From positions 9,534-73,533 of the forward strand of contig CAZSUJ010000004.1 of NCBI GenBank assembly GCA_964609925.1: 64,000 bases of DNA, given 5' to 3'. A program made the position numbers and the translations under genes. This stretch comes from an uncultured Chthoniobacter sp. (lineage in GTDB: Bacteria; Verrucomicrobiota; Verrucomicrobiia; Chthoniobacterales; JACTMZ01). How positions within the stretch are numbered: position 1 is the stretch's first letter; the number at the start of each line of letters is the position of its first letter. Under the pieces are notes generated by a model. It was not told where the DNA came from. It saw only the letters and a program-made list of their open reading frames with translations, and did no database searches. Below are positions 12,281 to 51,416 of the stretch, piece by piece.

Positions 12281-12418
12281 CAATACCGCCCCGGGGGGAG
12301 CAGCGCTGGCCTCCCGTGCGAAGAACGTCACTGGAGCGTGCCAACGGGGCGCAATCTATTAGCTCACCTAATACATGGCAAGCGCAAGAATCCCCGGCAG
12401 GACGAAGTCCAGGGCTTA

Positions 12419-33948: not shown

Positions 33949-36900
33949 TCATGGCACAACCGCGTCCACATCGAAGAAGCTGCGGTTGGTGGCCGGCACG
34001 GCGAACGCCTTGCGGGTGTAGTCGTTGGTCTGCGAAATCCCGCTCTGGTCGGCCGAGTTGGCCACAGTCACCGCCGCGTTGGTCCAAGGACCGGCGGAAA
34101 GGTTGGTCGTTGCATTCACGGAGTAGGCCACGCCAGTGTTCCTCTCGACCCAGCTGACCTCGGCGTTAGCTCCACTCTTCGTGGCACTCAGCAGGGCGGG
34201 CGAGCCCACAGCCGGGTTGCCGTCGAAGGAGAACTCCTCACCGTTGTCGAACCCGTCGCCATCCGGATCAGCCGCGGGCGCGGTATTCGTGAAGCCGGGA
34301 TAGGTGCCCTGCCAGAACGAAACCCACGAGTCGTAGGCGTTGGTCCCGCCAGACTGCACGGTGAGGACGCCCGTGGATTGGGCGAACACGTAGGTGGCCC
34401 CGTTGGTCGTGTTCGTCCAATTGCCGCCGGCGCCGCTGAAGCCATTGACGAGGAAATTCGTCCCGTAGTTCGCGACGACGTTGGTCCCCACGATGGTCCA
34501 ACTGTCGCCGCTGTTGGTCGAGGCGGCGGACAGGTCGAACTGGAAGTCGCCGTTCGCATTGAGCGTTCCGGTGCCGCTCACCCGGTTGTTCGTGCCGTTG
34601 CCGCCGACCGTGAAGGTGAGCAAGGCGTCTTCCGCCAGTGTGACCGCCCCGTCGGTGATGGTGGTGTTGCCGGCATGTGTGTTGGTGCCACGCAGCTCGA
34701 GCGTGCCGCCGGAGGTCTTGTTGAGGCCGCCGCCGCCGGTAAGGCCTTGGTTGATTTGCAGCGTGCCCGTGCCGTTGGTCTCGACGCGCACCGTGGCGGT
34801 GCCACCGGAGATCATGATCGACCCGCCGAGCACGTTGCGGCTGGTCGCCGTGGTCGTGGCCAAGGTCGCCCCGCCTGCGAGAGTGATGTTCTCGTTGTTG
34901 GTGAGGGCGTTGGTGGTGTTGTTGAAGAACGTCAGCGTGGCGTTCGAGGCGACCAAGGTGCCGAAGGCGCTGTCGCCCAGCGATCCAGCATTGTTCACGG
35001 AGGTCAGTGTGCCTTGGTCGACGTTGATCTGCCCCACGATCACGGTGCCCGGATTGATCGCCACGACGTTGGTGCCGGTCTTGGTCAGTGTGTTGGTTCC
35101 ACCGTTGACCAAGGTGCCGCTGCCTATGATGTCAATGCGGGCCGTTCCGCCTACGGAAGCATCGGAGGCCAGAGCGAGGCGCAGTCGTGTAGCGGTGGAC
35201 GTGCTGTTGTTCACCACTGCCCCCGCCCCGCCCGGGCCGTTGCCCGCGATGGTGACAACGCGCTCGGTGTTGTTCTGGCCGTTGAGGTCGAGCGTCGCGC
35301 CGCTGGCGACGGTGACGGCGTTTGATGTGCTGCCGAGAGAGTTGGAATTCGCAAGGCGCAGTGCACCGGAAGAGACGGTGGTGTTGCCTGTGTAGCCGTT
35401 TACCGCCGAAAGCGTGAGCGTGCCCACGCCGTCCTTCACGAGGGCGCCCGTGCCGGTGATCACCCCGGTGAAGTCGGCGTTGGTCGCCTGGTCGAGGTAG
35501 AAAACGCCATTGTTGGTGACGTCCCCGCCGAAGCTTTCGAGGGTGGTGCGGAGCGTGCCGCCGGAAATCGTCGTTGGCGAGGTCAGCGAATTCGAGCCGG
35601 CGAGGACCAGCGTCCCGGCGCCAGCTTTGGTCAATGCGCCGTTGGTCAGGCCGCCGTTGACGATCGCGGTGGCGGCGTTGACGGCGATCGTGCGGTTGCT
35701 GCCACCGAGATCCAGGCTGTTGGCGAACGTGAGCGTGCTGTTCGCCGTGGCGGCGTTGAGCACGAGAGTTGATGAGCCTTGGAGGAAGTTCGTTTGTCCC
35801 CATGTAAGCGCTGTCGGGCTGGAGGTGCCGCCAAGGGCCACGGTGATCGGGGCGCCGAAGGCGCTGAATCCAATGTTGGCGCTGGTCGAGTTGGTGTAGC
35901 CCACGCTGATAAGGCCAGCCCCGTCTCCAATCGAGCGGGTGATGCTCGCGCCACTTTCGAAGATGCCGCCGATAACACCACCGTTACCGAGCCGCAAAGT
36001 CGAATTGGTGGCGATGTTGACTCCATCGTTGGCCCGCAGCGTGCCCTGAGCAGTTATGATACCGTTGCTGTTGGTGTGGCTGACAGTTCCGTTGAGCACC
36101 GTGAGGGCGCCACCGGTGCCGACGAACAATGTCTGGCTCGAGACATTGAAAACGATCTTGCCATTGACAATGACCGTGCCGGCGCCATCGCCTGTCAAAC
36201 TGCCAATGCGGCCAAAGTTGCGGATCCAAAGATCGCCGTTGACGGTGGCGGAGGAGTTTGTGTTCCCGTTGTAAAGATACACGTTGCCGCCAAGACCGAT
36301 GTTGTTGGTCACGGTATTGCCGTTGAGGTCAAGGAACGCAGTATTCGTTCCGGGGTTGTTTGTTCCGACTGCGATGTTGCCCGCTCCTGCCGCCGTGCCG
36401 GAACCAAGGACCAAGCGACCGCTTTCGACCACCGTGGCGAACAACGGGATGCCGAAATTGGACTGCGTCAGATAATTGCTGATTGAACCCGTGTAACCGT
36501 TGGAGGAGTTGCTGAGAATCAGACGTCCGGGGCCGGCCTTGACCAAGCCGGCAGTGCCAAAGACCTGCGCGTCGAGGGTCACGCTTTTGTTCGTGCCCAA
36601 GGTGTTGACCGTGACGATCGGACTCGAGCCGGCCAAAGTCAGGGTGTTGTTGGTGTTGCCCCCGTTTCCGAGCGTCCAACCGGCGGCGGTGTTTGTCGCG
36701 GTGTCGCCAAAGACGAGGTTCCCGATCGTGACCGGGGCATTCAAGGTGACGGTGGAATCGTTCGTGATGTCGAGCGTGCTGAAGTTGGCCGTGTTGTTGC
36801 TGCCGCCGCCAATGACGCTGGCTTGCCAGTTCGCCGCCGTTTGCCAACTCCCGCTGGCACTACCGGCGGTGATGTTGGTCCAAGTCGCGGTGGTTTGCGC

Positions 36901-36954
36901 GAATGCGGTGGCTGCGAGGGAGAGGATCGTTGCTGCGGGGAGGAGGAGTTTCAT
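33949..36954 (-). CDS. PATR (autotransporter-associated beta-strand repeat) surface protein without barrel, ending in the TSP3-like module
   Basis: Signal MKLLLPAATILSLAATAFA. PATR head TWTNITAGSASGSWQTAANWQ...IGNLVFGD. About 800 aa of G/T/N-rich repeats containing LTKAGAGTLVL-type units. The tail is ADPDGDGFDNGEEF...RSFFDVDAVVP. Confidence 0.8.
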   Translation of the reverse strand: MKLLLPAATILSLAATAFAQTTATWTNITAGSASGSWQTAANWQASVIGGGSNNTANFSTLDITNDSTVTLNAPVTIGNLVFGDTATNTAAGWTLGNGGNTNNTLTLAGSSPIVTVNTLGTNKSVTLDAQVFGTAGLVKAGPGRLILSNSSNGYTGSISNYLTQSNFGIPLFATVVESGRLVLGSGTAAGAGNIAVGTNNPGTNTAFLDLNGNTVTNNIGLGGNVYLYNGNTNSSATVNGDLWIRNFGRIGSLTGDGAGTVIVNGKIVFNVSSQTLFVGTGGALTVLNGTVSHTNSNGIITAQGTLRANDGVNIATNSTLRLGNGGVIGGIFESGASITRSIGDGAGLISVGYTNSTSANIGFSAFGAPITVALGGTSSPTALTWGQTNFLQGSSTLVLNAATANSTLTFANSLDLGGSNRTIAVNAATAIVNGGLTNGALTKAGAGTLVLAGSNSLTSPTTISGGTLRTTLESFGGDVTNNGVFYLDQATNADFTGVITGTGALVKDGVGTLTLSAVNGYTGNTTVSSGALRLANSNSLGSTSNAVTVASGATLDLNGQNNTERVVTIAGNGPGGAGAVVNNSTSTATRLRLALASDASVGGTARIDIIGSGTLVNGGTNTLTKTGTNVVAINPGTVIVGQINVDQGTLTSVNNAGSLGDSAFGTLVASNATLTFFNNTTNALTNNENITLAGGATLATTTATSRNVLGGSIMISGGTATVRVETNGTGTLQINQGLTGGGGLNKTSGGTLELRGTNTHAGNTTITDGAVTLAEDALLTFTVGGNGTNNRVSGTGTLNANGDFQFDLSAASTNSGDSWTIVGTNVVANYGTNFLVNGFSGAGGNWTNTTNGATYVFAQSTGVLTVQSGGTNAYDSWVSFWQGTYPGFTNTAPAADPDGDGFDNGEEFSFDGNPAVGSPALLSATKSGANAEVSWVERNTGVAYSVNATTNLSAGPWTNAAVTVANSADQSGISQTNDYTRKAFAVPATNRSFFDVDAVVP
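33952..34344 (-). other. Copy D of the recurrent TSP3-like + beta-rich module (C-terminal)
   Basis: TNAYDSWVSFWQG...ADPDGDGFDNGEEFSFDGNP...LSAGPWTNA...RSFFDVDAVVP-stop. Confidence 0.6.
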
Positions 36955-37039: not shown

Positions 37040-38170
37040 TCATTTGGGTTCGGGAAGGACGCGCTGCCCGCTGGCCGGGTCGAAGAGGTGAACGCGGTTG
37101 GACTGGATGCAGAAGCGCTGTTTGGAGCCGTCCCCGCGGTGATCGGCCTCGGCGTGGCTGCGGCTGATGAGTGTGTGCTGTCCGGTGTTGAGGTAAAAGT
37201 AGGTTTCGGCCCCCATTGGCTCTATGAGCTCCACGAGCGCCTCAAACGATCCGGCGCGGGGCTCGGTGCCTCCGCGCGCCGGTTCGCAGTGCTCGGGGCG
37301 GACGCCGAGCGTGACTTCCTTTCCGGCGAGGGCGGCGTAGCCGGGCGGGTTGCCAAGTTCCACCCGGACCGGGCCGCCGCGGGCTTCGCGGAACACGAGT
37401 CCGGCGGCTGCGGCCTCGACCTGCCCTTCAATGAAATTCATCGGCGGGCTGCCGAGAAATCCAGCCACGAACAGATTTACCGGCTCGTGGTAAATGCGCA
37501 GAGGTTCGTTCGCCTGCTGGATGACACCGTCTTTCATCACCACGATGCGGGTGCCCATGGTCATGGCCTCCACCTGATCGTGGGTCACGTAGATCATCGT
37601 CGCCTGCAGTTTCTGGTGCAGCTTGGTGATTTCCGTCCGCATCTGGACGCGCATTTTGGCGTCAAGGTTCGAGAGCGGTTCGTCAAAAAGGAAGACCTTG
37701 GGCTGCCGGACGATGGCACGCCCGACCGCGACCCGCTGCCGCTGACCGCCGCTGAGCGCCTTGGGCTTGCGGTCGAGCAGCGCCTCGATACCGAGAACTG
37801 CGGCCGCATCCATCACCCGCTGCCGGATCTCCGCGCGGGGGAAACGTCGCAACTTCAGTCCGAATGCCATGTTGTCGAAGACCGACATGTGCGGATAGAG
37901 CGCGTAATTCTGGAACACCATGGCGATGTCACGGTCCTTGGGCGGCACGTCGTTGACCACCCGGCCGTCGATGGAAACTTCGCCCCGCGAAATTTCCTCC
38001 AGGCCGGCGATCATGCGCAGGGTCGTCGACTTGCCGCAGCCGGACGGCCCGACGAAGACAACGAACTCGCGGTCGGTGATATCGAGGTTGAAATCGCGGA
38101 CGGCGGTGACGCCCTCACCTTTCTCGCCCTCATAGATCTTGCAGACGTTACGCAGGCTGACTTGGGACAT
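37040..38170 (-). CDS. Carbohydrate ABC transporter ATP-binding protein (MalK/UgpC/MsmX type)
   Basis: Walker [10 protein letters not shown], signature LSGGQRQR, Walker [10 protein letters not shown], and a C-terminal TOBE-like regulatory domain. It overlaps the upstream gene by 23 nt. Confidence 0.9.
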
Positions 38171-39836
38171 GGGCGGGGCTTTCGATGGTGTTGTTCTCGA
38201 CGACAGCGGCCGGGCAGCCTTCTACGTCGAAGGGCGGCGCGCCGGCGTGCTGCGCCGGGTAGTTGGCGGAAGGAAGGATGCGGTTGCCGCGGATGACGAG
38301 ACCGCTGACACCGCGGGCGCGGATGATGCGTGGATCGAAGGCGCGGAAGAGGTTGTCCTCGATGCGCACGTTGCGGTGGTAGTCGCTACCGGGCTGGTGC
38401 TCCTCCTTGACGCCCGGGCTGATCTGGATCTGCGCCTTGGCCCAGATGCCATATTTGCAGTCCTCGAATGTGTTGCGCCGGATGAGGATGTCGCGCACGG
38501 CACCGCTTTCGAACCAGTGGTTCGCGTCGCCTTCGATGAGGATGGCGGCTCCGGCGGTGTGGAATGTGTTCTCCTCGACAACGACACGTCCGGGCACGGA
38601 GAGAAGGAATCCGCGGGCGCGGTTGCCGCGGCAGCGGCAGTGGCGGATCGTGACATCGGCCGACCAGGTCAGGTTGCCCATGGCGTCCCCCACCCGCGGC
38701 GGAACAGGAGGAGCCTCCTCGAGGCCAATGCGCAGAAACTCGCTGTTGAGGCGTTGCACGGAAGCAGCGCGTGCCGTGTGCTTCGTGGCCAAAGTGTCGC
38801 GATCGACCAGTTCAAGCAGTTCTCCGGATTCGGCGAAACCGACACCCCGCTGCTGGCGGTGGGACAGGCGGACCTCGAACTCAGCGGGACCGAGGACCCG
38901 CGTGATCTGGGTGTAGAGGCCGTGGACATTCGTGGCGTCGTCCAGTTGGTTCTCGAACACGCAATCTTCCAAGACAACGGACCCCCGGCAGTTCACGAAA
39001 TGGGTCGCGTCGGCCGTGGTCGAAACCATGCGCGAGCCGTCTTCCGGTGGCGCAACCCGCAACCTTTCGACGCGGATGCCTTCGCACCGCTGGGCGATCA
39101 GACCCATCGCGCCCGCGTGGTGGATCGTGACGTCTTGGATCTCCAGCCGGCGGCTGTTCTGCGCGGCGACGGCGGGGAAATCGCGGCGCTCGCTGACCAA
39201 AGCGAGCACGTTGCCGGGTTGCGGACGCGGCTCGCGGAAGTCCGCGTGCAAACGGACCCGCCGCGGACCGGTCTCCTCGGCACGGCAGCGGCGGCCGATG
39301 TTGAAATTGTCAAAGACTTGGAAAGCCGTCTCGCGGCGGACCGAGTCGAATTCGAGGATATTGCGGATCACGAAGGTCTCCGGCGACGGGCCGAAAAGGA
39401 GGCGTCCGTCGCGCACCTCGAACGGGAACCCCTCCGGAACCTCGATCTCCACGCCGCTTTCGTCGCTCTCGCGCACGATCCCCTCACCGTGGAAGGGAAC
39501 GGCCCAGTCCACTCGAAAACCCGAGAGCCGCACCCCGTCGCAACGGTCGAGGTGGAACGGAATCAGGCCGCCGTGGAAAACGAACTCCGCACCGTCCGCC
39601 TCCACGGCGAAGTCGCGGCGATCCTCGAGGAGGAAGACTATGCGCTTGAGCCCCTCATCGTTGTTCGAGATGAAGAGATACTTCTCTTCCGCGCGGTCGG
39701 GGTGAAAGTCGTAGCGCCCGGGCGCGAAGCGGAGCCCGGCACAATCCTTGCTTTCGAGTGCCTCGCGCACGAGAGGCGTGAAGTCGGAGGCGCCGGGATG
39801 GAATTCGTGGAGTTTATTCATAATGTGAATTTTCAA
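38148..39836 (-). CDS. Cytoplasmic right-handed beta-helix glycosidase-like protein (GH110-like, tentative)
   Basis: No signal peptide. [74 protein letters not shown], and later PbH1-type turns ([27 protein letters not shown]). The GH110 label rests on my recollection of that family's N-terminal beta-barrel plus beta-helix layout. Confidence 0.55.
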
Positions 39837-39861
39837 TTGTGCGTGTCATCCGTGACGCTTT

Positions 39862-41220
39862 TCATGATCCAAAGCCCTGCTTGGAGCGCAGCGCTTCGGC
39901 TCTGACCCGCAGCTGCGGTTCCCGCTCGATGTTGCGCTGGATCGCGCGGTTGACCTCGGCGGCGAGTTGCCGCGCAGCCTCCTCGGGCGTGACCACCCGG
40001 TTTTCCACGCGTCCGAGCATCTCGATGATCCAGCGCTGGACTTGCGCCGCATCGACAAAAGGGCTCGTGTCGGGCGGTTGCGCATCGCGGATCGCATCGA
40101 GAAAAACCTGATGGAACGTCTCATCCGGCACCGCCTTGTTGACGAGGGCCGCGCCGTCGGGCGCCATCTCCGGATTGGGGGGCAGGGAATCGCCATCCTC
40201 GATGATCTTGCGGCCGTATTCGGGGGTGGCAAGGTAGGAGAGGAAGGCCACCGCCAGTTCGGGGTGCCGGCTGCGGGCATTGACCGCAACTCCGCGCGTC
40301 CGCGTGTAGCCCCGCGAAGGCTGACCGGGCAGCCGCGGCAGCCGAACGGCGGCCAGATTCCCCTGCAGTTCTGGGAAATTTGCCGCCTGCACGGTGAACC
40401 AACGACCGATCATGATCATGGCCGCTTCACCCGAAGAGAACCAGTTGATGCCTCCCGATCCCCAGCCTCCCTGGCTCGACATGGCCACCGACTGCTCCGG
40501 CGTGGGCAACACGCGGTGCTTGAACATGAGGTCGTGGTAATGCTGGAACGCGGCCACAGCCTCGGGCGAGTCGAGCAGGCAGGTCATTCCGTCCTCGCTG
40601 AAATACCGCGCTCCGTGCGTGACCAGCAGGTCGGCAAAAAGATCCGGCGGAGACCAATTGGCGACCGGAATATGCGTTTTTCCACTCTTCGAAGGTGTCT
40701 CCGCAATGGCGCGCCCCGCAGCAACAAAATCGTCCCACGTCCAGTCGGCCTGCGGATAAGGCACCCCGTGGTCATCGAAGATCGCCTTGTTGTAGAGCAC
40801 CGCCTGCACGTTGACGTTGGCCGGGAAGCGATATTGCCGGCCGTCCACGAAAAGGGCGTGACGGATGGCGGGAAAAGTCTTCGACGCATCGAACCCCTGC
40901 TTCGCGGCCACGTCGGTGAGATCCAGAAGCAACCCGGCCTGCGCCATGCTCTGCATGAGGGTCTCCGGAATGTCCATGAGGTCCGGGCCGACGCCGGTGG
41001 CGCATTGCACGAGCAGTTTGGTGGCGTCACCCGTTTCTGTGGCCAAACGCACTCCTGGATGGGCCGCCGTGAAACCGGCCGTCTGACGGTCGCGCGCGGG
41101 ATTCGGGTCGGTGGCCCAACGGAGCACCACCTCGTTTCCGTCGCTGGAGCGTAAGGTGCCCATGGCGATGGCATAGAGGCCGAGGAAGACGGCGAACGCA
41201 GCGAGGAAGACGTATTTCAC
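39862..41220 (-). CDS. ABC transporter extracellular solute-binding protein (family 1, sugar)
   Basis: The GTG at 41220 overlaps the upstream stop (GTGA). It gives (M)KYVFLAAFAVFLGLYAIA as anchor/signal, followed by a typical SBP_bac_1-like body (LRWATDPNP..., GPDLMDI..., YNKAIFDDHGVPYP..., GRWF). The rest of ORF 39862..41745 is discarded. Confidence 0.8.
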   Translation of the reverse strand: MKYVFLAAFAVFLGLYAIAMGTLRSSDGNEVVLRWATDPNPARDRQTAGFTAAHPGVRLATETGDATKLLVQCATGVGPDLMDIPETLMQSMAQAGLLLDLTDVAAKQGFDASKTFPAIRHALFVDGRQYRFPANVNVQAVLYNKAIFDDHGVPYPQADWTWDDFVAAGRAIAETPSKSGKTHIPVANWSPPDLFADLLVTHGARYFSEDGMTCLLDSPEAVAAFQHYHDLMFKHRVLPTPEQSVAMSSQGGWGSGGINWFSSGEAAMIMIGRWFTVQAANFPELQGNLAAVRLPRLPGQPSRGYTRTRGVAVNARSRHPELAVAFLSYLATPEYGRKIIEDGDSLPPNPEMAPDGAALVNKAVPDETFHQVFLDAIRDAQPPDTSPFVDAAQVQRWIIEMLGRVENRVVTPEEAARQLAAEVNRAIQRNIEREPQLRVRAEALRSKQGFGS

Positions 41221-42074
41221 CCCTTGACCCCCCCGAGTTGCAGGCCTTTCACGAGGAACTTCTGGAACATCACGAAAATGATGATCAGCGGCACGATGTT
41301 CATCACCGTGGCCGCCATGATCAGCTCGGTCTGGCGCCCGTAGGAGCTGTCGAGTCGCAGCATGCCCACAGGCATGGTGAAAAGCTGCTCGTCCTGCAGC
41401 ATGACCAACGGCCAGAAAAACGACTGGTAAGCCCCGAGGAAGGTGAGGATGCAGAGTGCAATCAAGCCTGGCCGCGACAGCGGCACGATCACGTCCCAGA
41501 AGATCCGCCAGTGCCCGGCCCCGTCGATCGTGGCCGCCTCGTCGAGCGAGGGCGGGATCGAAAGCATGAACTGCCGCAGCAGGAACGTTCCGAAGGCGCT
41601 GAAGGCTGCGGGAATGATCAAGCCGTGGTAGGTGTTGACAAAACCGAACGTCACCATGAGCTGGAAATTCGGGATCATGGTGACCACGCCGGGGATCATC
41701 ATGGTGCCGAGGTAGAGGAGGAACACCTTGTCGCGACCGGGCCACTGGATGCGCGAGAACGCGTAGGCGGCCATGGCGCTGGTAAGCACCTGGAAGAGCG
41801 TGATGCCCATGGCCACGAAGATGCTGTTGAAATACCAGCGGCCGAATTTGACACCGAGAAAGACGCCGGTCACCGGGTCGGGCTTGAGATCGAGGACGAC
41901 GGGGTAGTTCAGCGCTGTCGGTTCGCGCGGCACGATGTGCGCCTGCTCGACTTCGGCGCGGGTCTTGAACGACGCACAGACCATCCAGACGAAGGGCGCC
42001 GAGAGCGCGAAGCCGATGGCGCAGAGCAGAAAGAAGCGGGGGATGGAGCGTGCGGGGAGCATGGTCTCAGACAT
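41217..42074 (-). CDS. Carbohydrate ABC transporter permease (MalG/UgpE-like)
   Basis: Six hydrophobic segments and an EAA-type loop LDEAATIDGAGHWRIFWDVIVPLSRPG. There is an 8-nt overlap with the upstream permease. Confidence 0.85.
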   Translation of the reverse strand: MSETMLPARSIPRFFLLCAIGFALSAPFVWMVCASFKTRAEVEQAHIVPREPTALNYPVVLDLKPDPVTGVFLGVKFGRWYFNSIFVAMGITLFQVLTSAMAAYAFSRIQWPGRDKVFLLYLGTMMIPGVVTMIPNFQLMVTFGFVNTYHGLIIPAAFSAFGTFLLRQFMLSIPPSLDEAATIDGAGHWRIFWDVIVPLSRPGLIALCILTFLGAYQSFFWPLVMLQDEQLFTMPVGMLRLDSSYGRQTELIMAATVMNIVPLIIIFVMFQKFLVKGLQLGGVKG

Positions 42075-43503
42075 CCAGGCTGCGGCCGAAGCGCCAGTTG
42101 AAGGCGGTAATGGAGAAAAGCATGGCGAACAGGACCCAGGATACGGCGGCGGCGTAGCCGAAGTTCAGGTCCTGGAAGCCGACTGTGTAAATATAGTAGC
42201 TCAGCGTGGTGGTCGCCCCCGCCGGGCCGCCGCCGGTCATGACTCGCGCCTGCTCAAACCCGCCCTGCAATCCGCCGATGATCGACACGATCGAGATGAA
42301 GAAGGTCGTGGGCGCGAGCTGCGGCCAAGTGACATTGACAAAGCGCTGCCAGCGGTTGGCCCCGTCGATCTCCGCGGCCTCGGTGAGTTCGACCGGAACA
42401 TTCGACAACGCCGCGAGGTAAAGCAGCATGTTGGTGCCGCCGATGGCGGTCCAGAACCCCATGATCATGAGCGAGGGCTTGGCCAACTCGATGCTGGCCA
42501 GCCACTGCGGCAACTCCGATGCCTCGAGCCCCGTTAGGGCAGAGAGCATGGCATTGATCGGCCCGGTCTGCGGGTTGTAGAGCGCTTTCCACAGGATCAT
42601 GAGCGCCACTCCCGAGGTGAAGGCGGGCAGGTAGAAGATCGTCCGGAACGACACCACGTTGAACGCGAGGCCGAGCCCGGCGATGACCCACAAAACAGCA
42701 GCCAGCAACGCGGCATCGCGGAACCCCGCCGCCCAGAGCAGAGCCGCCAGTCCGAGTCCGCTGACCACGCAGAGCCCCGCAGCCGGCCAGGCCCGCCCCT
42801 TTTTCACCGGCAGAGAGTCATTCAACAGGATCGCCAAAACCAAGGAACCCGCCACGGAAAAAGGCAACGCGAGCATCATGTAAACGGTGTTGTAGAGATA
42901 ATGCCAAAACCGGGGGTCGTTCGCCTCGTAGGCGCTCCACATCGCGCTGTGCAAGAAGACGAGTCCGGCCGAACCCGCCACCACCGCCACGCCCGGCAGC
43001 AGGCCCGCCCGCGGCGCCGTTTCATGCTCGCCGGGCTTGTTGTCCCAGAGCATCCAGCCCAGCACCGAAAAAACCACGGCCACAATCAACAGGCTGTGGT
43101 GCGCGCCGGCCCCGACCGCTCCGGCGCCGATCGCCAGCGAAGCGACGAAGAACGATGCGGCGCCACCGCGACCGCAGCGCACGCCGCTCAGCCCCATCCA
43201 TACCGCCCCGATCACCCCGGCCAGCACAAGCAGCACGCTGCCGCAATAGGCGGCGATGACCAGCGGCGCGCCCGCGCCGATCGCCGAAAAGCCGAGCGCA
43301 TCCTCGAAGTTCCGCAGCCCGACAAACTCACGGGGCACGGACGGCTTCAAAGTCCAGTTGGTGAAGGCCATTCCCAGCGAGAGGACCACGGGGAACAAGG
43401 TGAACAGGAAGAAGCCCCCGAAATTCGGCAGCAGAAAACCGAAGACCGCAGCCGGCGGGCCCTTGGGGCGCCGCGGGCGAACTGGTCTGCCGCTGGTGCT
43501 CAT
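42067..43503 (-). CDS. Carbohydrate ABC transporter permease (MalF/UgpA-like) with two extra hydrophobic insertions
   Basis: The ATG at 43503 overlaps the upstream stop (ATGA). EAA loop LTEAAEIDGANRWQRFVNVTWPQLAP. The canonical FVGLRNFEDALGF and NDPRFWHYLYNT blocks are separated by ~120 hydrophobic residues. Confidence 0.8.
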   Translation of the reverse strand: MSTSGRPVRPRRPKGPPAAVFGFLLPNFGGFFLFTLFPVVLSLGMAFTNWTLKPSVPREFVGLRNFEDALGFSAIGAGAPLVIAAYCGSVLLVLAGVIGAVWMGLSGVRCGRGGAASFFVASLAIGAGAVGAGAHHSLLIVAVVFSVLGWMLWDNKPGEHETAPRAGLLPGVAVVAGSAGLVFLHSAMWSAYEANDPRFWHYLYNTVYMMLALPFSVAGSLVLAILLNDSLPVKKGRAWPAAGLCVVSGLGLAALLWAAGFRDAALLAAVLWVIAGLGLAFNVVSFRTIFYLPAFTSGVALMILWKALYNPQTGPINAMLSALTGLEASELPQWLASIELAKPSLMIMGFWTAIGGTNMLLYLAALSNVPVELTEAAEIDGANRWQRFVNVTWPQLAPTTFFISIVSIIGGLQGGFEQARVMTGGGPAGATTTLSYYIYTVGFQDLNFGYAAAVSWVLFAMLFSITAFNWRFGRSLDV

Positions 43504-46500
43504 GGCGCAACCTCCGGCTCGATTTTGATCTTCATCACCGCTTGCACCCCGTTGGCTCCCCAAGATCCGATCTCCCAAGGGTAGAGCGACTTGGCCGGGT
43601 CGGGGGACACCACGTTGTTGTCCTCGATGAGTCCGCGGATCGAAGTCAGGAGCAGGCCCGGGGACGCCCCGCCGTCGATACGGTTATTGCGCAAGGTGAT
43701 GTTGCTGAAAGCTCCGGCCGGCGAGATCGTCCCGTCCCCGCCGGCGGCGAGAACAGCGACGCCCATGCCGCCACCCTCGGTGATCAAGTTGTCAGCAATC
43801 ACAAGGTTGTCGGCCAGACCCGCTTCGAGCCACCAGTATTCCGGCGCGATGTAGACGGCGGTCATGCGCGCGCCCTCGATGTGGTTGCCCGTGATCTCGC
43901 CTTGGCCGGCCTTGACGAGAATGCCGCGCGAGCGGTTTTGTCCGACGTGGCAGTTGCGGATGATGAAGCCGCTGCCGATGGCGCCTGCATCGCAGATGAG
44001 GGTTCCGGGGACGATATCCCCCACGGCAGCGTCCAAGGTGACCAGAAAACCGTCCTCCATCGCCGTTCGGCCGAGGTCGCCATTGAACTTCTGCTCAAGG
44101 AGCATGGCGCGTTCCTCGGGAGTGGCCGGTCCGTCGTCGACGACGGAAACGACCCGGCGATTATCCGGCCTCAGCCCGCTCCTGGTGAAAAGTTGGACGT
44201 CGTCGCCGGGTTGCAGGGTCATGCCGGATTTCGCCAGCACGCGCAGGGCGGCCCCCTCCACGCGGGTGATGTAGTGAAAGTCGCCGTTGATCGCGATGGC
44301 GTCGTCGCCCATGTGGAAGGCCGAGCAACCGTCATAGACCGGCCCCCTCCGCGCGTTCTTCGAGTGGAACGCATCCGCGTTGAGCGAACGAAGCCGCCGG
44401 TGCTCCCGCGAGCGCAAATCGTCGGTCGGCTCCCGCCGCTCGACCCGGCATTTGATGTAGCGGGATCCCTCGCAGCCGTTCTCGAGAAAACCGAAGCTGT
44501 TGCTCGCGTGCAGAGTGACCCTCTCCATGACCAGCCCCTTGCTTCCGGTTGCGTAGATGGTGTGGGGCATGCTGCCGCCCGGCGCGTAACTCGTCTTGAT
44601 CACGGCAATGTCGCCGATCTGCTCGTTTGCGTAAGCCAGGTTGGACGATGACTTGGTCAATACGGCCCGCATGGGTCCACTTGGCTCGCACAGCGTGCTG
44701 TAATACGTCATGCGTCCGCGCAGGCTGCCGGTGGCGGGATCGAAAACTTCCACGGACCCGGTTGACGTTCCCGGCTCCGGGTAGCCCTCGAGAATTTCCA
44801 CCTCGAGGCGTGATGCGTCAGCCGAGATGGAGGTGATGCGCCCCTGCGTGAATGGCAAGGGGTCGTAGTCGATGGTCAGGCCGCGGATCGTGACATTCTC
44901 GCAGCCCTCGATGGTGATCGCCCGGGTAGTTTCCGTGCAGACCATCTCCACCTGATCGGCGATGATCTCGGTGTCCTTCACACCCCGCAGGAGGAGGTGC
45001 TGCCGGCTCGAGGGCCGGACCCGATAGCGGCCCGGCGGTATTACAATCCGTTTTTCGCCGGCCGCCACCCGCGTAGCGATGAACGTGGGCAACCACGCCG
45101 TGTCCTCCACCGGGGTCGGACCCGGCGTGGCAATGACCGTGCCGACCCGGTAGAATGCGGTGTCGGTCGCGGGGACAACGAATTCCTTGCGGTGGTAATC
45201 CGCCGGCATGGGGATGCCTTCCTGGTTGCGTGAATTGGAAATCGTCACGCCGGCGGTGACCCACGGGCCGGTGTTCAAGTTGGTCGTCGTTTGCACCAGA
45301 TAACTCACGCCGCCGGGCGGGTTGTTGCGCGCGATGAAGCTGAAGACCAGATTCTCACCGTTGCCCGTCGCGATTAGCACGGCTCCGTCCGCCGACGTTG
45401 GGTTGCCGCCGAAGGCGAACTCGGCTTCGTTGTTGAGAAGGTCTCCATCGGCGTTGTCCACGGCCGCGGTGCTTCTGAACCCCGCAGCCTCGCTCTGCCA
45501 AAGCCCGACCCAATAAGCGTAGTTGTTCGTCACGGGAGCCTGCACAACCCTCAAAACGCTGTTGGACTGGGCGAACACGTAGCTGATGCCGTTGGCTGCG
45601 TTCGTCCATTTGCCGTCGCCGCCATTGAAGCCGCGGACGAGAAAATTCGCGCCGTAGGTGTTGGTCAGATTTCCGGTCAGGATGGTCCAACTGTCGCCCA
45701 CGCGGGTCGAGGCACCGGTGAGGTCGAAATCGAACTCCCCATCGATGCTGGTTGCGCCTGTGCCGCCCAAGGTGTTGTTCGTGCCGTTGCCGCCGATGAG
45801 GAAGCGCAGCGAGCCTCCGGAAACGAGGTTGATGGCACCTTCCTCCACCAGGGTGTTGCCGGTGTGGCTGCTGTTTCCTCGCAACTCCAGTGTGCCGGAG
45901 CCGGTTTTGTTGAGATGACCGGCACCGGTGACGGCCCCGCCGAGAATCAAGGTGCCCGTGCCCCGGGGATCGACGCGCACCGAGGCAGTGCCCGGGCTCA
46001 AGGTGATGCTACCGTCGAGGATGTTGGGGCTGGTGGCAAGTGTGCCGGCCAGTTCAGCGCCGTCCGCGAGGGTGATGTCCTCGCGGTTGCTGATGGCCGA
46101 GCCGCTGCTGTTGAAGAACTGCAGACTGGCGTTGGAGGCAACAAGTGTGCCGAAGTTTGTGTCGCCGAGGGCGGTTCCGCTGTTGACCACGACCACAGCC
46201 CCCCGGTTGAGGAGGAGGCTGCCCATCGAGGTCACACCAGTATTGATGATGAACGAATTGGTTCCGACTTTGGTCAGGGTGTTGGTGCCGGCATCGATCA
46301 CCGTGCCGCCAAACGAGGTGTCGATCCGCGCCGTGCCGCCGAGCGACGCATTCGTGGCGAGGACGAGGCGAAGGCCCGTGGCGGAATTGGTGCCACGGTT
46401 GACCAGCGCGGCACTGCCGCCTACACCCCTGCCGCTGATTGTGACGGTCTCCCCGCCGATGTTGAAGCCGTTCAGATCCAAGGTTGCTCCGGCCTCAACC

Positions 46501-46847
46501 GTGGTGCCATCGGCGATCGCACCCAGGGCGTTGGTCTGGCCCACACGGAGCACGCCCTGCGAGACGGTTGTGACGCCGTTGTAGGTGTTCGGTGCGGCCA
46601 GGACCAAAGTTCCCGCTCCGGTCTTGGTCAGGCCGCCCGTTCCTGTGCTGTTGGAAACCACTCCGGTCATGGTTGCTGTCTGGGTTGGAACGCTGACCGT
46701 GAGGATCGAGCCGTTGAGGTCGATCGCATTGGTGTAAACCAAGTTCGTGCTGTTCGTCGGCGGGCTGAGCACGAGATTCGTCGACGCCTGCACGATGCAA
46801 GCGGAGCCGAGCAGGGCAGCCAAAAGAAGGAGGGTGCGGGGAAGCAT
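43500..46847 (-). CDS. Secreted chimeric protein: PATR region + TSP3-like module + right-handed beta-helix enzyme domain
   Basis: The ATG at 46847 gives the signal MLPRTLLLLAALLGSACIVQA. The N-terminal ~590 aa is collinear with the C-terminal part of 33949..36954. The C-terminal ~520 aa is collinear with 46936..48741 (IVIPPGRYRVRPS..., LTIDYDPLPFTQGRITSIS..., SLNADAFHSKNARRGP..., MGDDAIAINGDFH...). Confidence 0.75.
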   Translation of the reverse strand: MLPRTLLLLAALLGSACIVQASTNLVLSPPTNSTNLVYTNAIDLNGSILTVSVPTQTATMTGVVSNSTGTGGLTKTGAGTLVLAAPNTYNGVTTVSQGVLRVGQTNALGAIADGTTVEAGATLDLNGFNIGGETVTISGRGVGGSAALVNRGTNSATGLRLVLATNASLGGTARIDTSFGGTVIDAGTNTLTKVGTNSFIINTGVTSMGSLLLNRGAVVVVNSGTALGDTNFGTLVASNASLQFFNSSGSAISNREDITLADGAELAGTLATSPNILDGSITLSPGTASVRVDPRGTGTLILGGAVTGAGHLNKTGSGTLELRGNSSHTGNTLVEEGAINLVSGGSLRFLIGGNGTNNTLGGTGATSIDGEFDFDLTGASTRVGDSWTILTGNLTNTYGANFLVRGFNGGDGKWTNAANGISYVFAQSNSVLRVVQAPVTNNYAYWVGLWQSEAAGFRSTAAVDNADGDLLNNEAEFAFGGNPTSADGAVLIATGNGENLVFSFIARNNPPGGVSYLVQTTTNLNTGPWVTAGVTISNSRNQEGIPMPADYHRKEFVVPATDTAFYRVGTVIATPGPTPVEDTAWLPTFIATRVAAGEKRIVIPPGRYRVRPSSRQHLLLRGVKDTEIIADQVEMVCTETTRAITIEGCENVTIRGLTIDYDPLPFTQGRITSISADASRLEVEILEGYPEPGTSTGSVEVFDPATGSLRGRMTYYSTLCEPSGPMRAVLTKSSSNLAYANEQIGDIAVIKTSYAPGGSMPHTIYATGSKGLVMERVTLHASNSFGFLENGCEGSRYIKCRVERREPTDDLRSREHRRLRSLNADAFHSKNARRGPVYDGCSAFHMGDDAIAINGDFHYITRVEGAALRVLAKSGMTLQPGDDVQLFTRSGLRPDNRRVVSVVDDGPATPEERAMLLEQKFNGDLGRTAMEDGFLVTLDAAVGDIVPGTLICDAGAIGSGFIIRNCHVGQNRSRGILVKAGQGEITGNHIEGARMTAVYIAPEYWWLEAGLADNLVIADNLITEGGGMGVAVLAAGGDGTISPAGAFSNITLRNNRIDGGASPGLLLTSIRGLIEDNNVVSPDPAKSLYPWEIGSWGANGVQAVMKIKIEPEVAP
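45126..45530 (-). other. Copy E of the recurrent TSP3-like + beta-rich module (internal, at the fusion junction)
   Basis: TNNYAYWVGLWQS...DNADGDLLNNEAEFAFGGNP...LNTGPWVTA...TAFYRVGTVIAT, followed by the linker PGPTPVEDT. Confidence 0.6.
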
Positions 46848-46935
46848 CTGCAGCAATCGAAGCGGACGATTTGCATGATGGCGCGCACAGGCGGAATTCT
46901 TCGTTGGCCTCCATGCGGGATTCACCGGGCGTCCC

Positions 46936-48741
46936 TCACGGCGCGGCGACCACCGGTTCGACGTTGACCTGCATGACCGGTTGAACTCCATTCCGGCCCC
47001 AAGGCCCGACTTGCCGCGGATGGAGGGCCATGTCCGGGTCGGGTTCGATGACGTTGTCTGCTTCGACCAGGCTGCGCACCGAGGTGACCAGAAGCCCGGG
47101 GCTCGGCCCGCCTTTGACGGAGTTGCCGGTGATGCTGATGTTATTGAAGGTTCCGGCCGGGGAGATGATGCCGGCTTCCCTGCCGACGGAAATCACGGCG
47201 ATGCCCATGCCCCGGCCCTCGGAGATGCGGTTGCGGGCGATCACGAGATTGTCCGACATGCCGGCCTCGAGCCACCAGTATTCCGGTGTGACAAGGATGG
47301 AGGTCATGAGTGAGCCGGTGATTTCGTTGTCCGTGATCTCGCCGCGCCCCGCTTTGACAAGGATGCCTCGCGAGCGGTTGTGTCCGAGGCGGCAATGGCG
47401 GATGGCGAATCCGTTGCCAATGCCGTCGGAATCGCAAACCATGGTGCCGAGCCCCACGCCCTCCACCGGTTCCTCAAGCACGATGCGGTAGGCGTCGTTG
47501 AGACCGTCGCGGCGGATGTCGGGATAGAGGTTGCGGGACATGACGTCCTTGCGCTCGTCCTCGGTGATCTTGCCGTCGGGCGTGACCGAGACAACGCGCC
47601 GGTCGGGCAGGCGCGTGCCGTCGGGGTTGAGGAATTGAACGGCGTCGCCCGCGCGGATTTGCATCACGCGTTTAGCCAGCACGCGGAGTTCCGCGCCCTT
47701 GGCTTCGGTGACGAAGTGAAAGTCCCCATTGATGGCGATGGCGTCATCGCCCATGAAGAATGCGCTGCAGTGCTCGTAGGTCGGGCCGCGCCGCGCGTTC
47801 TTCGAGTGGTAGGCGTCGGCGTTCATCGAGCGAAGGCGTGGCATCTCGCGCACCACGGGGTCGTGCTCGGGCGCGCGGCGGTCCACCCGGCAGCGGATGT
47901 AGCGCGAGTTGTTGCAACTGTTCTCGAAGAATCCGAAGGTCGGTCCGGCATAGAGCGTGACATCCTCAAAGACCAACCCCTCGCTGTCCGTCGCCATGAT
48001 CGCGTGGGGCTGCCTGCCGCCCGGGGCATAGGTCACCGAGATCACGGCAATGTCCCCGACCTTCTCGATGGCGAACTCCTCGGTGGCGCTCCGCTTTGTG
48101 ATGACGGCCCGCATGGAGTCCTCCATCGAGGTGGTTGCACCGAAGTGCGTGGTGCGCTCGCGCAAACGGCCGGTGGCCGGGTCGAAAATCTCCACCGAGC
48201 CGATAATCTCGCTGTTGCCCGGTTCAGCGTAGCCGTCGAGGATTTCAACGGTCAGGCGCGAGGTGTCCTCCGAAATCTCCACAATGCGCCCCTGCGTGAA
48301 CGGGAGGGGATCGTAGTCGATGGTGAGGCCCCTGATCGTGAGATTCTGGCAGTTCTCGATGGTGACGGCACGCGTGGTTTCGGTGCAGACCATCTCGACC
48401 CCTTCCATGACAAGCGTCACGTCCTGAAGCCCCGCGAGCCGCAGATGCTCGCCGTTTTCCGGTTCGACGCGGTAGCGTCCGGGGGGCACGACAATCGTCT
48501 TTTCGCCGGCTGCCAAGGCGTCTGCGATGATCCCCCGCAAATCGGCCAGAACCTCCTCAGGGGCCGGTCTCCCGGGGGAAGGAGTGACTGAGGACGCAGA
48601 GGGGGCTTCGGCTGTTGCTGCCGCCGCGGCGGGAGGGTTGGCCTCGGCCTGACGCGCGGGTTGCGGCGTCGGCCGGCAGGAGGCAGAGGTCATGGCAAGC
48701 AGACCTGCGATAAGAAGATAATGGCGGGTGGTCGTGTTCAT
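46936..48741 (-). CDS. Right-handed beta-helix enzyme (GH110-like, tentative), probable lipoprotein
   Basis: The ATG at 48741 gives MNTTTRHYLLIAGLLAMTSASC, then an Ala/Pro-rich linker. Also IVVPPGRYRVEPENGEHLRL, LTIDYDPLPFTQGRIVEIS, SMNADAYHSKNARRGP, MGDDAIAINGDFH and PbH1-like turns (RHCRLGHNRSRGILVKAGRGEITDNEI). Confidence 0.7.
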   Translation of the reverse strand: MNTTTRHYLLIAGLLAMTSASCRPTPQPARQAEANPPAAAAATAEAPSASSVTPSPGRPAPEEVLADLRGIIADALAAGEKTIVVPPGRYRVEPENGEHLRLAGLQDVTLVMEGVEMVCTETTRAVTIENCQNLTIRGLTIDYDPLPFTQGRIVEISEDTSRLTVEILDGYAEPGNSEIIGSVEIFDPATGRLRERTTHFGATTSMEDSMRAVITKRSATEEFAIEKVGDIAVISVTYAPGGRQPHAIMATDSEGLVFEDVTLYAGPTFGFFENSCNNSRYIRCRVDRRAPEHDPVVREMPRLRSMNADAYHSKNARRGPTYEHCSAFFMGDDAIAINGDFHFVTEAKGAELRVLAKRVMQIRAGDAVQFLNPDGTRLPDRRVVSVTPDGKITEDERKDVMSRNLYPDIRRDGLNDAYRIVLEEPVEGVGLGTMVCDSDGIGNGFAIRHCRLGHNRSRGILVKAGRGEITDNEITGSLMTSILVTPEYWWLEAGMSDNLVIARNRISEGRGMGIAVISVGREAGIISPAGTFNNISITGNSVKGGPSPGLLVTSVRSLVEADNVIEPDPDMALHPRQVGPWGRNGVQPVMQVNVEPVVAAP

Positions 48742-48749
48742 GAGCTGGC

Positions 48750-49571
48750 TCAAAATTGTCCGTTGCAGAATTTCGTGCGCTTCTGCTGCTGGCTGCCGGT
48801 TGGCACAAGTTCCTCGGGCATTTTGGCCCACTCCTCGGCCGTGTGGGCCGAGATGCTGCCGTCAGCCCAGAGCACGTTGCCCCTTCCGTTATGGCGCGTG
48901 GCGAACGCCCTGCCCTCATTTGACTCCGAGGCGCTCGGCGTGAACGTCTCGGCGGATCCCCCGTAGAAGTTGTTTTGAAAAACCATGTCGATCAGCACGG
49001 GCAACTTGCTCGGACGCGACACCGCCACGATGCGATCCACGCTGTTTCCATTGTTACGGATCGAATCCCGGTTGCTGTTGAGCTGTGCGTTGTATCCGTA
49101 GTGCATCGGATAGCGGGGGTCGGCGGCAGTGGATTCGGGCATCCGAGCCCAAGACGTTTGGCCGGTTGGAGAGGTAGCCGGGGCGCCGGGGCATACGAAA
49201 ACTTCGCGACTCTTTCCCACATACGGCCAGATGTCCACCAGCCAGCCCATGGACGCCCCTGACCCAGCCGGGAGCGGCGGAGTCCAAGTGCCGCCGCCGT
49301 CACCCCAGCCGCCACGGGGAAACGTGCCGTTGTTGTCAGCCGCGAACGATGCGACGGCGGCACCGATAGACTTCATGTTGGCCATGCACTTCGCGGAAGC
49401 GCCGCGGCCGAGCATGCTCTGCGCTGTAGGAATCGCCAACGCAGCGAGGACTGCGATGATCGCAACCACCGCGAGCAGTTCCATGAGGCTGAAACCGCGG
49501 TTGTCGGGACCGCAGGTTCCAACGGTGAGGCCGAATCGCAAACCATGCCGATGAGGGAGGGGGGAGGACAT
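48750..49571 (-). CDS. Prepilin-type N-terminal cleavage/methylation protein with an H-X9-DG C-terminal motif
   Basis: ...DNRGFSLMELLAVVAIIAVLAALAIP is the class-III signal. The C-terminal TRHNGRGNVLWADGSISAHT fits H-X9-DG exactly. It is the first gene of the minus-strand block, with an 8-nt gap to the next gene. Confidence 0.8.
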   Translation of the reverse strand: MSSPLPHRHGLRFGLTVGTCGPDNRGFSLMELLAVVAIIAVLAALAIPTAQSMLGRGASAKCMANMKSIGAAVASFAADNNGTFPRGGWGDGGGTWTPPLPAGSGASMGWLVDIWPYVGKSREVFVCPGAPATSPTGQTSWARMPESTAADPRYPMHYGYNAQLNSNRDSIRNNGNSVDRIVAVSRPSKLPVLIDMVFQNNFYGGSAETFTPSASESNEGRAFATRHNGRGNVLWADGSISAHTAEEWAKMPEELVPTGSQQQKRTKFCNGQF

Positions 49572-49592: not shown

Positions 49593-49624
49593 GTATTGAC
49601 ATGATTTGATGGCTGCGTCAATAC
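49593..49624. promoter_or_regulatory. Perfect 8-bp inverted repeat in the divergent promoter region (operator and/or face-to-face promoters)
   Basis: GTATTGAC (49593-49600) - 16 nt - GTCAATAC (49617-49624). Each arm contains a TTGAC(A/G) -35-like hexamer for one direction and an AATAC(T/A) -10-like element for the other. A second small palindrome, TTGTATCACAA, lies at 49630-49640 just before the regulator ATG. Confidence 0.5.
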
Positions 49625-49647
49625 TGCTTTTGTATCACAATGAAGTC

Positions 49648-50799: not shown

Positions 50800-51416
50800 A
50801 ACTCACCGTGACCTCCGCCGCCGTTGGCACCATCCTTGCCTTGGCCTTCCCCGCGAAAGCCGTCGACGGTCTCCTGCCCAACCCCTCCTTTGAGGAGATG
50901 ACTGCGGGGCGACCACTCGGTTTCAGGGTGTTCCCGAGCCCAGACGATGCCCAAGGCGACTTTTACGTTCTCGAAGGGACCGAGGGTGACACCACCCATA
51001 CTGGCCGTCGCGCCTTGCAGTTTCACTTTCCAGAGGGTGCCGACATCGCGCAGGTGGCATGGACAGCCGACCCAGCAACAGGGGGGTGCGTGGTGCAGAC
51101 TGGGGGCTACAAATGCAGTTTTTGGATCAAGGCGGAGGGGATGCGGCCCGGCTTCCACGTCTGGGTAGCCGCAAATGGCTACGGCGAAGGCAAGAAACCC
51201 CTGGAGAAAATCGCCCGCAGTGAATACCTCAACGCCGCAGAGCTAGCCAACGGAGACTGGAAGCGGGTCGAGTTCACATTTGATGTTCTCACGGAGGGCG
51301 GCATCCAGCGGGTCGCGCCGTCGGTCGTCTTCAAGACCAGCCCCGACGCCCTGATCGAGCACGTCCCATCCGACACGCGGATCCTCGTGGATGACCTTCA
51401 GATCGAGGCACAGTAA
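50796..51416 (+). CDS. Small secreted CBM4/9-like (jelly-roll) protein
   Basis: ATGA overlap with the regulator stop. Signal MKLTVTSAAVGTILALAFPAKA, then LLPNPSFEEM...YKCSFWIKAEG...DDLQIEAQ, the pattern of carbohydrate-binding CBM_4_9-type modules. Confidence 0.5.
   Translation: MKLTVTSAAVGTILALAFPAKAVDGLLPNPSFEEMTAGRPLGFRVFPSPDDAQGDFYVLEGTEGDTTHTGRRALQFHFPEGADIAQVAWTADPATGGCVVQTGGYKCSFWIKAEGMRPGFHVWVAANGYGEGKKPLEKIARSEYLNAAELANGDWKRVEFTFDVLTEGGIQRVAPSVVFKTSPDALIEHVPSDTRILVDDLQIEAQ

Follow-up and report, generated by a model that had tools for sequence, protein, structure and literature searches.

The stretch of DNA analysed here, called the window below, comprises 64,000 nucleotides of an uncultured Chthoniobacter sp. 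(contig CAZSUJ010000004.1) with a G+C content of 62-65%. On its minus strand it carries three related genes, whose products, proteins A, B and C, are the subject of this report. Protein A (38148-39836) has 562 aa and belongs to glycoside hydrolase family GH110. Protein B (43500-46847) has 1115 aa, counted from the Met that opens its signal peptide; its C-terminal catalytic module (43500..45137, residues 571-1115) is a paralog of protein C, and its N-terminal half (45138..46847) consists of the signal peptide, a PATR stalk and a C-terminal stalk domain. Protein C (46936-48741) has 601 aa and is a predicted lipoprotein. The three open reading frames (ORFs), listed in an earlier note on this DNA, were confirmed at the same coordinates. 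Between the genes for B and A, on the same strand, lies an ABC sugar importer (39862..43506; Pfam BPD_transp_1 twice, SBP_bac_1 and SBP_bac_8), which is syntenic in the related locus L005. Judged by profile comparison and structure prediction, B and C are true but very remote homologs of GH110 and form a deep sister clade of the family.

The three proteins share one layout, as the earlier note had proposed: they are homologous across the full catalytic length with a similarity far beyond chance, and every motif listed there was found in each of them where it had been placed. PGRY lies at residues 39-42 of A, 605-608 of B and 87-90 of C; the D(W/Y)xxPF strand is present in A and reads LTIDYDPLPFTQGRI in both B and C. 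ADAxH occupies residues 275-279 of A (39000-39014), 824-828 of B (44364-44378) and 308-312 of C (47806-47820), and DDAx occupies residues 299-302 of A (38931-38942), 848-851 of B (44295-44306) and 332-335 of C (47737-47748), all on the minus strand. RxCxxxxNRxRG is present in A and takes the form RNCHVGQNRSRG in B and RHCRLGHNRSRG in C. In pairwise alignment, residues 571-1114 of B and protein C share 57% identity across 548 aa (E 0.0), and A and C are colinear over 490 aa with 23% identity (E 1e-15).

The GH110 label of the earlier note is correct for A, which matched all solved GH110 structures and both GH110-specific Pfam barrels. By phmmer the matches were 7jw4 (PdGH110B, E 7.6e-105), 9beh (GH110A, E 1.8e-85), 8pvs (E 2.9e-76), 9i4f (E 1e-65) and 8yk3 (E 1.8e-39); the Akkermansia and Pedobacter enzymes of subfamily B thus fall at 1e-65 to 3e-76 and AgaBb of subfamily A at about 1e-39. 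The Pfam GLAA-B barrels PF23763 (48.9 bits) and PF23764 (43.9 bits) both exceeded the 28-bit cut-off, and Beta_helix (PF13229) was found as well. The closest characterised enzyme, PdGH110B (PDB 7JW4, 7JWF, 9BEU), is the exo-alpha-1,3-galactosidase of the lambda-carrageenan polysaccharide utilization locus (PUL) of Pseudoalteromonas distincta and represents a third, unclassified GH110 subfamily. Its general acid is Asp344, the base is Asp321 and/or Asp345, and its galactose pocket is formed by Asn85, Arg265, Asn348, Glu480, Trp486, Glu488 and Arg453 (PMC7939477). A matches this enzyme over its full length and, in the alignment, has an identical triad, D276 (ADATH) and D299/D300 (DDAT), and identical -1 subsite residues, N58, R218, N303, E435, W441, E443 and R408. 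In an alignment of A with 15 similar proteins, N58, R218, D276, D299, D300, N303, R406, R408, W441 and E443 are invariant; E435 occupies a position that is variable among GH110 proteins. The equivalent Glu480 of PdGH110B blocks the 6-sulfate pocket (PMC12549532), and because this residue is kept as E435, A is predicted to cleave unsulfated terminal alpha-1,3-galactose. A differs from PdGH110B at the +1 site, where K207/R208 are replaced by R158/N159, and in its setting, being cytoplasmic and encoded inside an ABC-importer operon rather than part of a periplasmic PUL. The gene starts 25 nt after that of the solute-binding protein, the ORF is not extendable upstream, the N-terminus is not hydrophobic, and residue 17 is already paired with PdGH110B residue 41 in the alignment; by these features A lacks a signal peptide and is a predicted cytoplasmic protein. 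Going by its alignment, A is a cytoplasmic inverting exo-alpha-1,3-galactosidase of the PdGH110B type, the activity being a prediction.

Protein C is predicted to consist of a signal peptide, Cys22, a Pro/Ala linker to about residue 60 and a GH110-like module at residues ~61-601 (46939-48561), with predicted catalytic residues D309 and D332/D333; those of B are D825 and D848/D849. In B and C the only domain that Pfam recognised in the catalytic module was the generic Beta_helix, the GH110-specific Pfam barrels had no match at E <=0.1 in B or C, and an NCBIfam scan of A, B and C returned nothing informative except the PATR repeat. PATR is the autotransporter-associated beta-strand repeat. In the stalk of B it was detected by Pfam (PF12951, E 2.9e-14, two stretches) and by TIGR02601 (E 1.1e-16), and residues 14-568 of B align over 559 aa, at 50% identity, with the last 557 residues of a stand-alone secreted PATR protein encoded nearby (33949-36954, minus strand; Pfam PATR in four stretches, E 4.5e-21). 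Given this resemblance, B looks as though a duplicated PATR gene had been joined to a C-like catalytic module, and its L005 ortholog is fused likewise.

The relationship of B and C to GH110 emerged at the level of profiles and structure. The best single-sequence match of C in the PDB (phmmer) was PdGH110A at E 0.028. A clade profile built from 30 homologs matched GH110 chains only (E 3e-13 to 1e-10), with the next match at E 0.02, and hhalign aligned the clade with a GH110 alignment over 455 columns (probability 100%, E 1.4e-39). The AlphaFold2 (AF2) model of C has a mean predicted local distance difference test (pLDDT) score of 89.5 and a predicted template modelling (pTM) score of 0.87; its linker is disordered, with pLDDT <50 at residues 18-56. 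In a Foldseek search with this model the top 15 matches were all GH110 chains (E 1e-22 to 3e-26, template modelling (TM) score 0.61-0.70, about 590 columns), and the next fold was that of AlgE4 (E 7e-7, TM 0.36). From the profile, hhalign and Foldseek results, the whole GH110 architecture, a beta-helix with two inserted barrels, is common to B and C. That B and C act as polysaccharide lyases or C5-epimerases, or serve as non-catalytic beta-helix adhesins, is highly improbable. Such a reading could draw on the adhesin-like PATR stalk of B and on a weak structural likeness, as any beta-helix would show, to the AlgE4 epimerase, capsule depolymerases and lyases (E 1e-6 to 1e-4), but the TM scores of these matches are 0.16-0.36 against 0.61-0.70 for GH110, the GH110 hydrolase triad is fully conserved, and Pfam and NCBIfam gave no lyase matches. 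The lyase alternative of the earlier note is not supported, the best fold outside GH110 being AlgE4 at a TM of only 0.36.

PdGH110A (PDB 9BEH, 9BEV), which is an exo-6-sulfo-alpha-D-galactosidase, gave the best match of C both in the single-sequence and in the Foldseek search, and both proteins lack the Glu that closes the O6 pocket. PdGH110A is, however, a normal GH110 member, which A matches at E 1.8e-85 and C only at E 0.028, and the likeness is one of sequence and fold. With subfamilies A and B (AgaBb, 8YK1-3; AmGH110, 8PVS; PpaGal, 9I4F), which act on blood-group-B and linear alpha-Gal structures, B and C share the fold and the inverting Asp triad, and the clade profile finds them at E 1e-10 to 1e-11; those enzymes are associated with mucin and blood-group glycans, whereas sulfatases and environmental bacteria of the Planctomycetes-Verrucomicrobia-Chlamydiae (PVC) group are the setting here. 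By sequence comparison the B/C clade lies outside the three described GH110 subfamilies (PMC11368712), at about the same distance from each. The literature searched (GH110-like; GH110 with Verrucomicrobia, Planctomycetes or sulfatase) contained no account of such a clade, and no characterised member was found.

With a home-made GH110 hidden Markov model (HMM), true GH110 proteins scored 705-880 bits and members of the clade 50-138 bits (C 83.5, B 74.4), with few intermediates; this split indicates a discrete clade. On the clade HMM the module of B scored 835 bits, against 74 bits on the GH110 HMM. Three intermediate-scoring proteins, encoded at L083 18219-20198, L044 3234-5084 and L069 16634-18385 (268 bits with the GH110 model, 215 and 179 bits with that of the clade), suggest that the GH110 superfamily may have additional deep branches. 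The hedged wording of the earlier note, GH110-like or perhaps an undescribed glycosidase family, suits B and C well: they are remote homologs with the multi-domain fold of GH110, go undetected by the GH110-specific Pfam models and belong to a discrete clade. Scores of 74-84 bits and a median model coverage of 0.75 in the clade mean that an automated annotator could call B and C GH110, and a CAZy-style tool might label them weakly so. The same scores speak for B and C being ordinary alpha-1,3-galactosidases of GH110 specificity, that is, divergent exported isozymes of A that CAZy-type tools would file as GH110. This is considered unlikely: the clade lies far outside the spread of the three subfamilies, the most distant of which A still matches at E 1e-39 while the best phmmer match of C is at E 0.028, and the active site and gene neighbourhoods described below also bear on it.

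The clade alignment has 90 members. The "acidic pair" of the earlier note, the ADA and DD motifs, proved to be the published catalytic triad of PdGH110B, D321 plus D344/D345 (PMC7939477), and its aspartates are kept after proper alignment: they are present in A, B and C, and equivalents of C D309, D332 and D333 occur in all 90 clade members. W490 of C (the W486 platform of PdGH110B), E492 (E488) and R456/R458 (R451/R453, the NRxRG arginines) are conserved in at least 95% of the clade. Thus B and C have in common with PdGH110B, to which they are only 14-17% identical, the beta-helix with two inserted barrels, the triad, the Trp platform, Glu488 and the NRxRG arginines. They differ from it as follows. 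The 16-residue ISNND pocket loop, which supplies Asn85, is deleted in the clade; the residue at the Arg265 position varies, with Ser in 42 of the 90; the Glu480 position is Ala, Ser or Thr; in front of the first catalytic Asp stands an Arg-rich insert of 8 residues; and barrel II is larger than that of GH110. New invariant residues (C numbering) are Arg298, Arg304, His246 and Lys463. The N348 position is Ala in B and C, with an Asn two residues further along. The acid motif itself occurs in two forms that covary perfectly within the clade: DDxxN(I/V)(C/H)G, which resembles the GH110 motif DDATNVHG, in 64 of the 90, and DDxxA(I/V/L)NG, the form of B and C, in 26. In the latter the Asn equivalent to N348 of PdGH110B appears, from the alignment, to be shifted by two residues. 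At L008 both forms of the motif flank a single GH110 gene. As a whole, the GH110 -1 subsite is not conserved in B and C.

These residues bear on both remaining alternatives. In favour of an ordinary galactosidase, the clade keeps the triad, the Trp platform, the Glu488 equivalent and the NRxRG arginines, and most clade members retain DDxxN(I/V)(C/H)G with its N348 equivalent; on the other hand, the N85/D90 loop and R265/R270, which are kept in all characterised GH110 enzymes (PMC11368712), are absent or variable. The loss of about half of the GH110 galactose-binding residues speaks for B and C being inverting glycosidases for another sugar or linkage, for example a different alpha-linked sugar within a complex heteroglycan that bears sulfate or acetyl groups, with only the catalytic scaffold in common with GH110. 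The same Asp geometry is found in beta-helix hydrolases that cleave alpha-GalA, alpha-Glc and alpha-1,3-Glc (GH28, GH49 and GH87; PMC7939477). These three families resemble B and C in the right-handed beta-helix, in one acid and two base aspartates and in the cleavage of alpha-linked sugars (PMC7939477); they differ in giving no sequence-level matches, in TM scores <=0.36 and in lacking the two inserted beta-barrels. Specificity for a sugar other than galactose is judged unlikely, given that GH110 itself is the most specific recurrent enzymatic partner of the clade and that a GH36-clan enzyme lies in the same operon and a GH42 beta-galactosidase elsewhere in the window.

Signal peptides were called by visual inspection and a crude rule on hydrophobicity rather than with a dedicated predictor. 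The N-terminus of B is MLPRTLLLLAALLGSACIVQA, followed by the PATR repeats. That of C is MNTTTRHYLLIAGLLAMTSAS, followed by Cys22 and the disordered Pro/Ala linker, and C looks like a lipoprotein by these features. Its LLAMTSAS|C22 is compatible with the permissive PROSITE-type lipobox pattern but lacks a Leu at -3; C orthologs have clearer lipoboxes, LAALACAGC in L005 and FGALAGCG in L006. Signal sequences are present in B, C and the stand-alone PATR protein, and absent in A and in two sulfatases and a GH36-like protein of the same gene cluster. Among the clade members, 62 of the 90 have a signal-peptide-like hydrophobic N-terminus by the crude test, several with a lipobox. The partner GH110 usually has no signal peptide (Verrucomicrobiota, Kiritimatiellota, Phycisphaerae, Armatimonadota); the exceptions are Pirellulales and Bacteroidota loci. 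The idea that the three enzymes are destined for three compartments, A without a signal, C lipoprotein-like and B on a PATR stalk, has thus held up, and the pattern recurs across the clade loci.

At least 954 relatives came up in a word-indexed search, under no names other than "hypothetical" and "right-handed parallel beta-helix repeat-containing protein". By exhaustive profile search, clusters at 50% identity numbered 1072 with a cut-off of E <=1e-30 and 3374 with E <=1e-10, so that the clade comprises at least 1072 such clusters. Species representatives yielded 346 loci in Verrucomicrobiota, Planctomycetota, Kiritimatiellota, Lentisphaerota, Armatimonadota, Acidobacteriota, Poribacteria and Bacteroidota, largely from non-marine sources (lakes, ponds, bogs, groundwater). 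A tblastn search of C against plasmids, aimed at a link to the Pseudoalteromonas lambda-carrageenan plasmid, found no such link and only three haloarchaeal megaplasmid matches. These relatives, on NZ_CP112973.1, NZ_CP034941.1 and NZ_CP120469.1 (Halovenus, Halorubrum and Halobaculum), have 23-28% identity to C at <=83% query coverage, so that the superfamily extends to Archaea.

Gene neighbourhoods were counted in 80 related loci with retrieved 10-kb flanks. The closest locus, L005 of a Chthoniobacterales metagenome-assembled genome (MAG; 71% identity), is syntenic, with the order regulator, C, B, ABC importer, GH110, ATPase; by this synteny the window most likely stems from a Chthoniobacterales-like verrucomicrobium of soil or freshwater. 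Between its solute-binding protein and GH110 genes L005 carries a DUF4886/GDSL-like esterase (11751-12680; gaps in L006, L007 and L011), a family found in 6 loci; the window has no such gene at that position and an AXE1-like esterase further downstream instead. A true GH110 gene occurs within the flanks of the clade gene in 16 of the 80 loci, and 15 of these have both genes on one strand. The two genes abut in eight loci (L008, L010, L048, L050, L061, L062, L074, L079) and are separated by about 100 bp to 4.4 kb in seven, whereas in L083 the GH110 gene is about 6.6 kb off on the opposite strand. The 16 loci span six phyla: Verrucomicrobiota, Planctomycetota, Kiritimatiellota, Lentisphaerota, Armatimonadota and Bacteroidota. 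That clade and GH110 genes are kept together in many genomes argues against mere isozymes, since genes standing side by side point to different rather than redundant jobs. S1 sulfatases also recur as neighbours, and relatives (~50% identity) of the sulfatase at 32326 stand beside clade genes in 7 loci. A DUF1559 gene was found in 11 of the related loci and the regulator in 15 (18 and 16 by blastp clustering); the DUF1559 family holds the same position next to the clade gene in at least 11. When all ORFs of 83 loci were clustered, the clade with its GH110 group, DUF1559, the regulator and sulfatases recurred; the remaining partners were of low frequency (SASA, DUF4886 esterases, GH29, GH51-like, DUF1501) and did not pin down a substrate, and the contexts of three distant clade members were heterogeneous glycan genes with no common theme. 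The many loci with fucosidases, arabinofuranosidase-like enzymes, GH2 and SASA/GDSL esterases rather than GH110 speak for specificity for another sugar.

In the window, the minus-strand genes follow the order DUF1559, C, B, two permeases, solute-binding protein, A and MalK-type ATPase, and after the ATPase come the PATR protein, an S1 sulfatase, an AXE1-like esterase, an S1_8A-like sulfatase and a GH36-clan protein. The prepilin-type DUF1559 protein (48750-49571) is encoded 8 nt upstream of C. The permeases (42067-~43506 and 41217-42074; Pfam BPD_transp_1) and the solute-binding protein (39862-~41223; Pfam SBP_bac_1 and SBP_bac_8) make up the importer, and the MalK/MsiK-type ABC ATPase (37040..38170; Pfam ABC_tran, OB_MalK, TOBE_2) overlaps the end of A by 23 nt. 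The S1 sulfatase (32326-33846; by Pfam, N-terminus read by eye), the S1_8A-like sulfatase (29748-31253; best PDB match S1_8A, E 1.1e-30) and the GH36-clan protein (27691-29751; Pfam Raffinose_syn, E 4.5e-41) have no signal peptide; the AXE1-like esterase (31292-~32300) was identified by Pfam. All of these genes are on the minus strand, and a GntR-HTH regulator with a sugar-binding domain (49606-50799, plus strand) diverges from the C-side cluster. The 13 co-directional genes overlap or are separated by gaps of <=102 nt; a single overlap of 283 nt is attributed to an over-extended start call. A single operon, as the earlier note had it, is plausible from this arrangement; terminator-like sites in the cluster were no commoner than in shuffled sequence and neither support nor break it. 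The neighbours are as that note described: the GH36-clan protein, a GH42 beta-galactosidase (E 5.5e-134), which sits elsewhere in the window and outside the operon, and seven S1 sulfatases across the window.

Several other features of the window were recorded. Four other sulfatases (at 254, 1881, 26053 with a twin-arginine translocation (TAT) signal, and 57654) are exported, and no formylglycine-generating enzyme (FGE) gene was noticed in the 64-kb window. A second N-methyl-domain gene (6690-7433, plus strand) follows the GH42 gene. An ORF of 2834 aa (12419-20923, minus strand) has a PEP-CTERM motif at residues 719-743 and a weak match to the GH81 C-terminal domain near residue 2400; the sorting signal in mid-protein suggests either that two genes were merged in the reading or that the architecture is unusual. 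An exported protein of 820 aa (51391-53853, plus strand) has only a weak PhoD-like Pfam match and gave zero matches in a PDB search. Its homologs are immediate neighbours of clade genes in L016 and L022 (Phycisphaera) and in L038 (Draconibacterium), and it may be another uncharacterised partner enzyme.

The locus probably encodes a compartmentalised pathway that degrades, in two stages, a sulfated and probably also acetylated glycan containing alpha-galactose. In the first, extracytoplasmic stage, B on its PATR stalk and C as a lipoprotein would act as inverting glycosidases using the GH110 triad. They would cut an axial (alpha) glycosidic bond with inversion, D332 of C serving as general acid and D309/D333 activating the water, as in PdGH110B. 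Because the -1 site is remodelled, they may accept what characterised GH110 enzymes do not; the target could be a sulfated or substituted alpha-galactosyl residue or an internal (endo) linkage. In the second stage the ABC importer, whose genes lie between those of B and A, would bring in the still-sulfated oligosaccharides. The lack of signal peptides in the operon sulfatases (29748-31253 and 32326-33846) implies cytoplasmic desulfation of imported sulfated oligosaccharides, and these two S1 enzymes, one of them S1_8A-like, would complete the degradation together with the GH36-like enzyme and A. We infer the catalytic activity and alpha-galactosyl specificity of B and C, the order of action and the substrate; what is established is the homology, the fold, the conservation of the triad, which proteins carry signal sequences and which gene neighbourhoods recur.

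A sulfated, galactose-rich substrate had already been suggested in the earlier note and is supported by the conserved GH110 and S1 sulfatase neighbours, the S1_8A-like enzyme among them, at the level of a suggestion. S1_8A is the galactose-2-sulfate sulfatase of the lambda-carrageenan cascade (PMC12549532), GH110 together with S1_8 sulfatases is a lambda-carrageenan signature (PMC6262041, PMC12549532), and two GH110 enzymes of differing sulfate tolerance act in one cascade with S1_8 and S1_15 sulfatases, which provides a precedent (PMC12549532). Several observations weigh against the two-stage breakdown of a sulfated alpha-galactan. The N85 loop, R265 and E480 of the GH110 -1 subsite are missing in the clade, so that the sugar recognised by B and C may not be galactose. 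In 64 of the 80 clade loci there is no GH110 gene within 10 kb, and the other neighbours are mixed, comprising GH29 fucosidases, SASA/GDSL esterases, GH51-like enzymes, GH2 and GH10. Lambda-carrageenan as the literal substrate is unlikely, as the relatives are largely non-marine.

Protein A is a further member of a known family, and the catalytic logic of B and C is unsurprising; what makes the hypothesis specific and testable is that the clade is large, that its pairing with GH110 and with sulfatases is conserved, and that exported and cytoplasmic enzymes separate cleanly. We tentatively propose, as a possibility short of an expectation, that the B/C clade is a functionally distinct sister family or deep subfamily of GH110, an exported first-acting enzyme for sulfated alpha-galactans in PVC and other environmental phyla, either an endo-alpha-galactanase or a sulfate-tolerant alpha-galactosidase. 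If true, the clade would fill the "unidentified" depolymerase role proposed for organisms that lack GH150 and have GH110 and S1_8 sulfatases (PMC6262041). If B and C are plain alpha-1,3-galactosidases, the finding shrinks to an ordinary case of compartmentalised paralogs. GH110 enzymes matter for blood group B conversion, for removal of the alpha-Gal epitope and for the microbial turnover of sulfated algal galactans. The characterised enzymes fall into three fairly close subfamilies, and the B/C clade is much larger and deeper. Its members keep the catalytic machinery, have a rebuilt sugar pocket, are usually exported and are genetically coupled to true GH110 and sulfatases across phyla. The clade is thus a testable candidate for a new alpha-glycosidase specificity, and its recognition would sharpen the annotation of carbohydrate-active enzymes (CAZymes) in Verrucomicrobiota, Planctomycetota and related MAGs.

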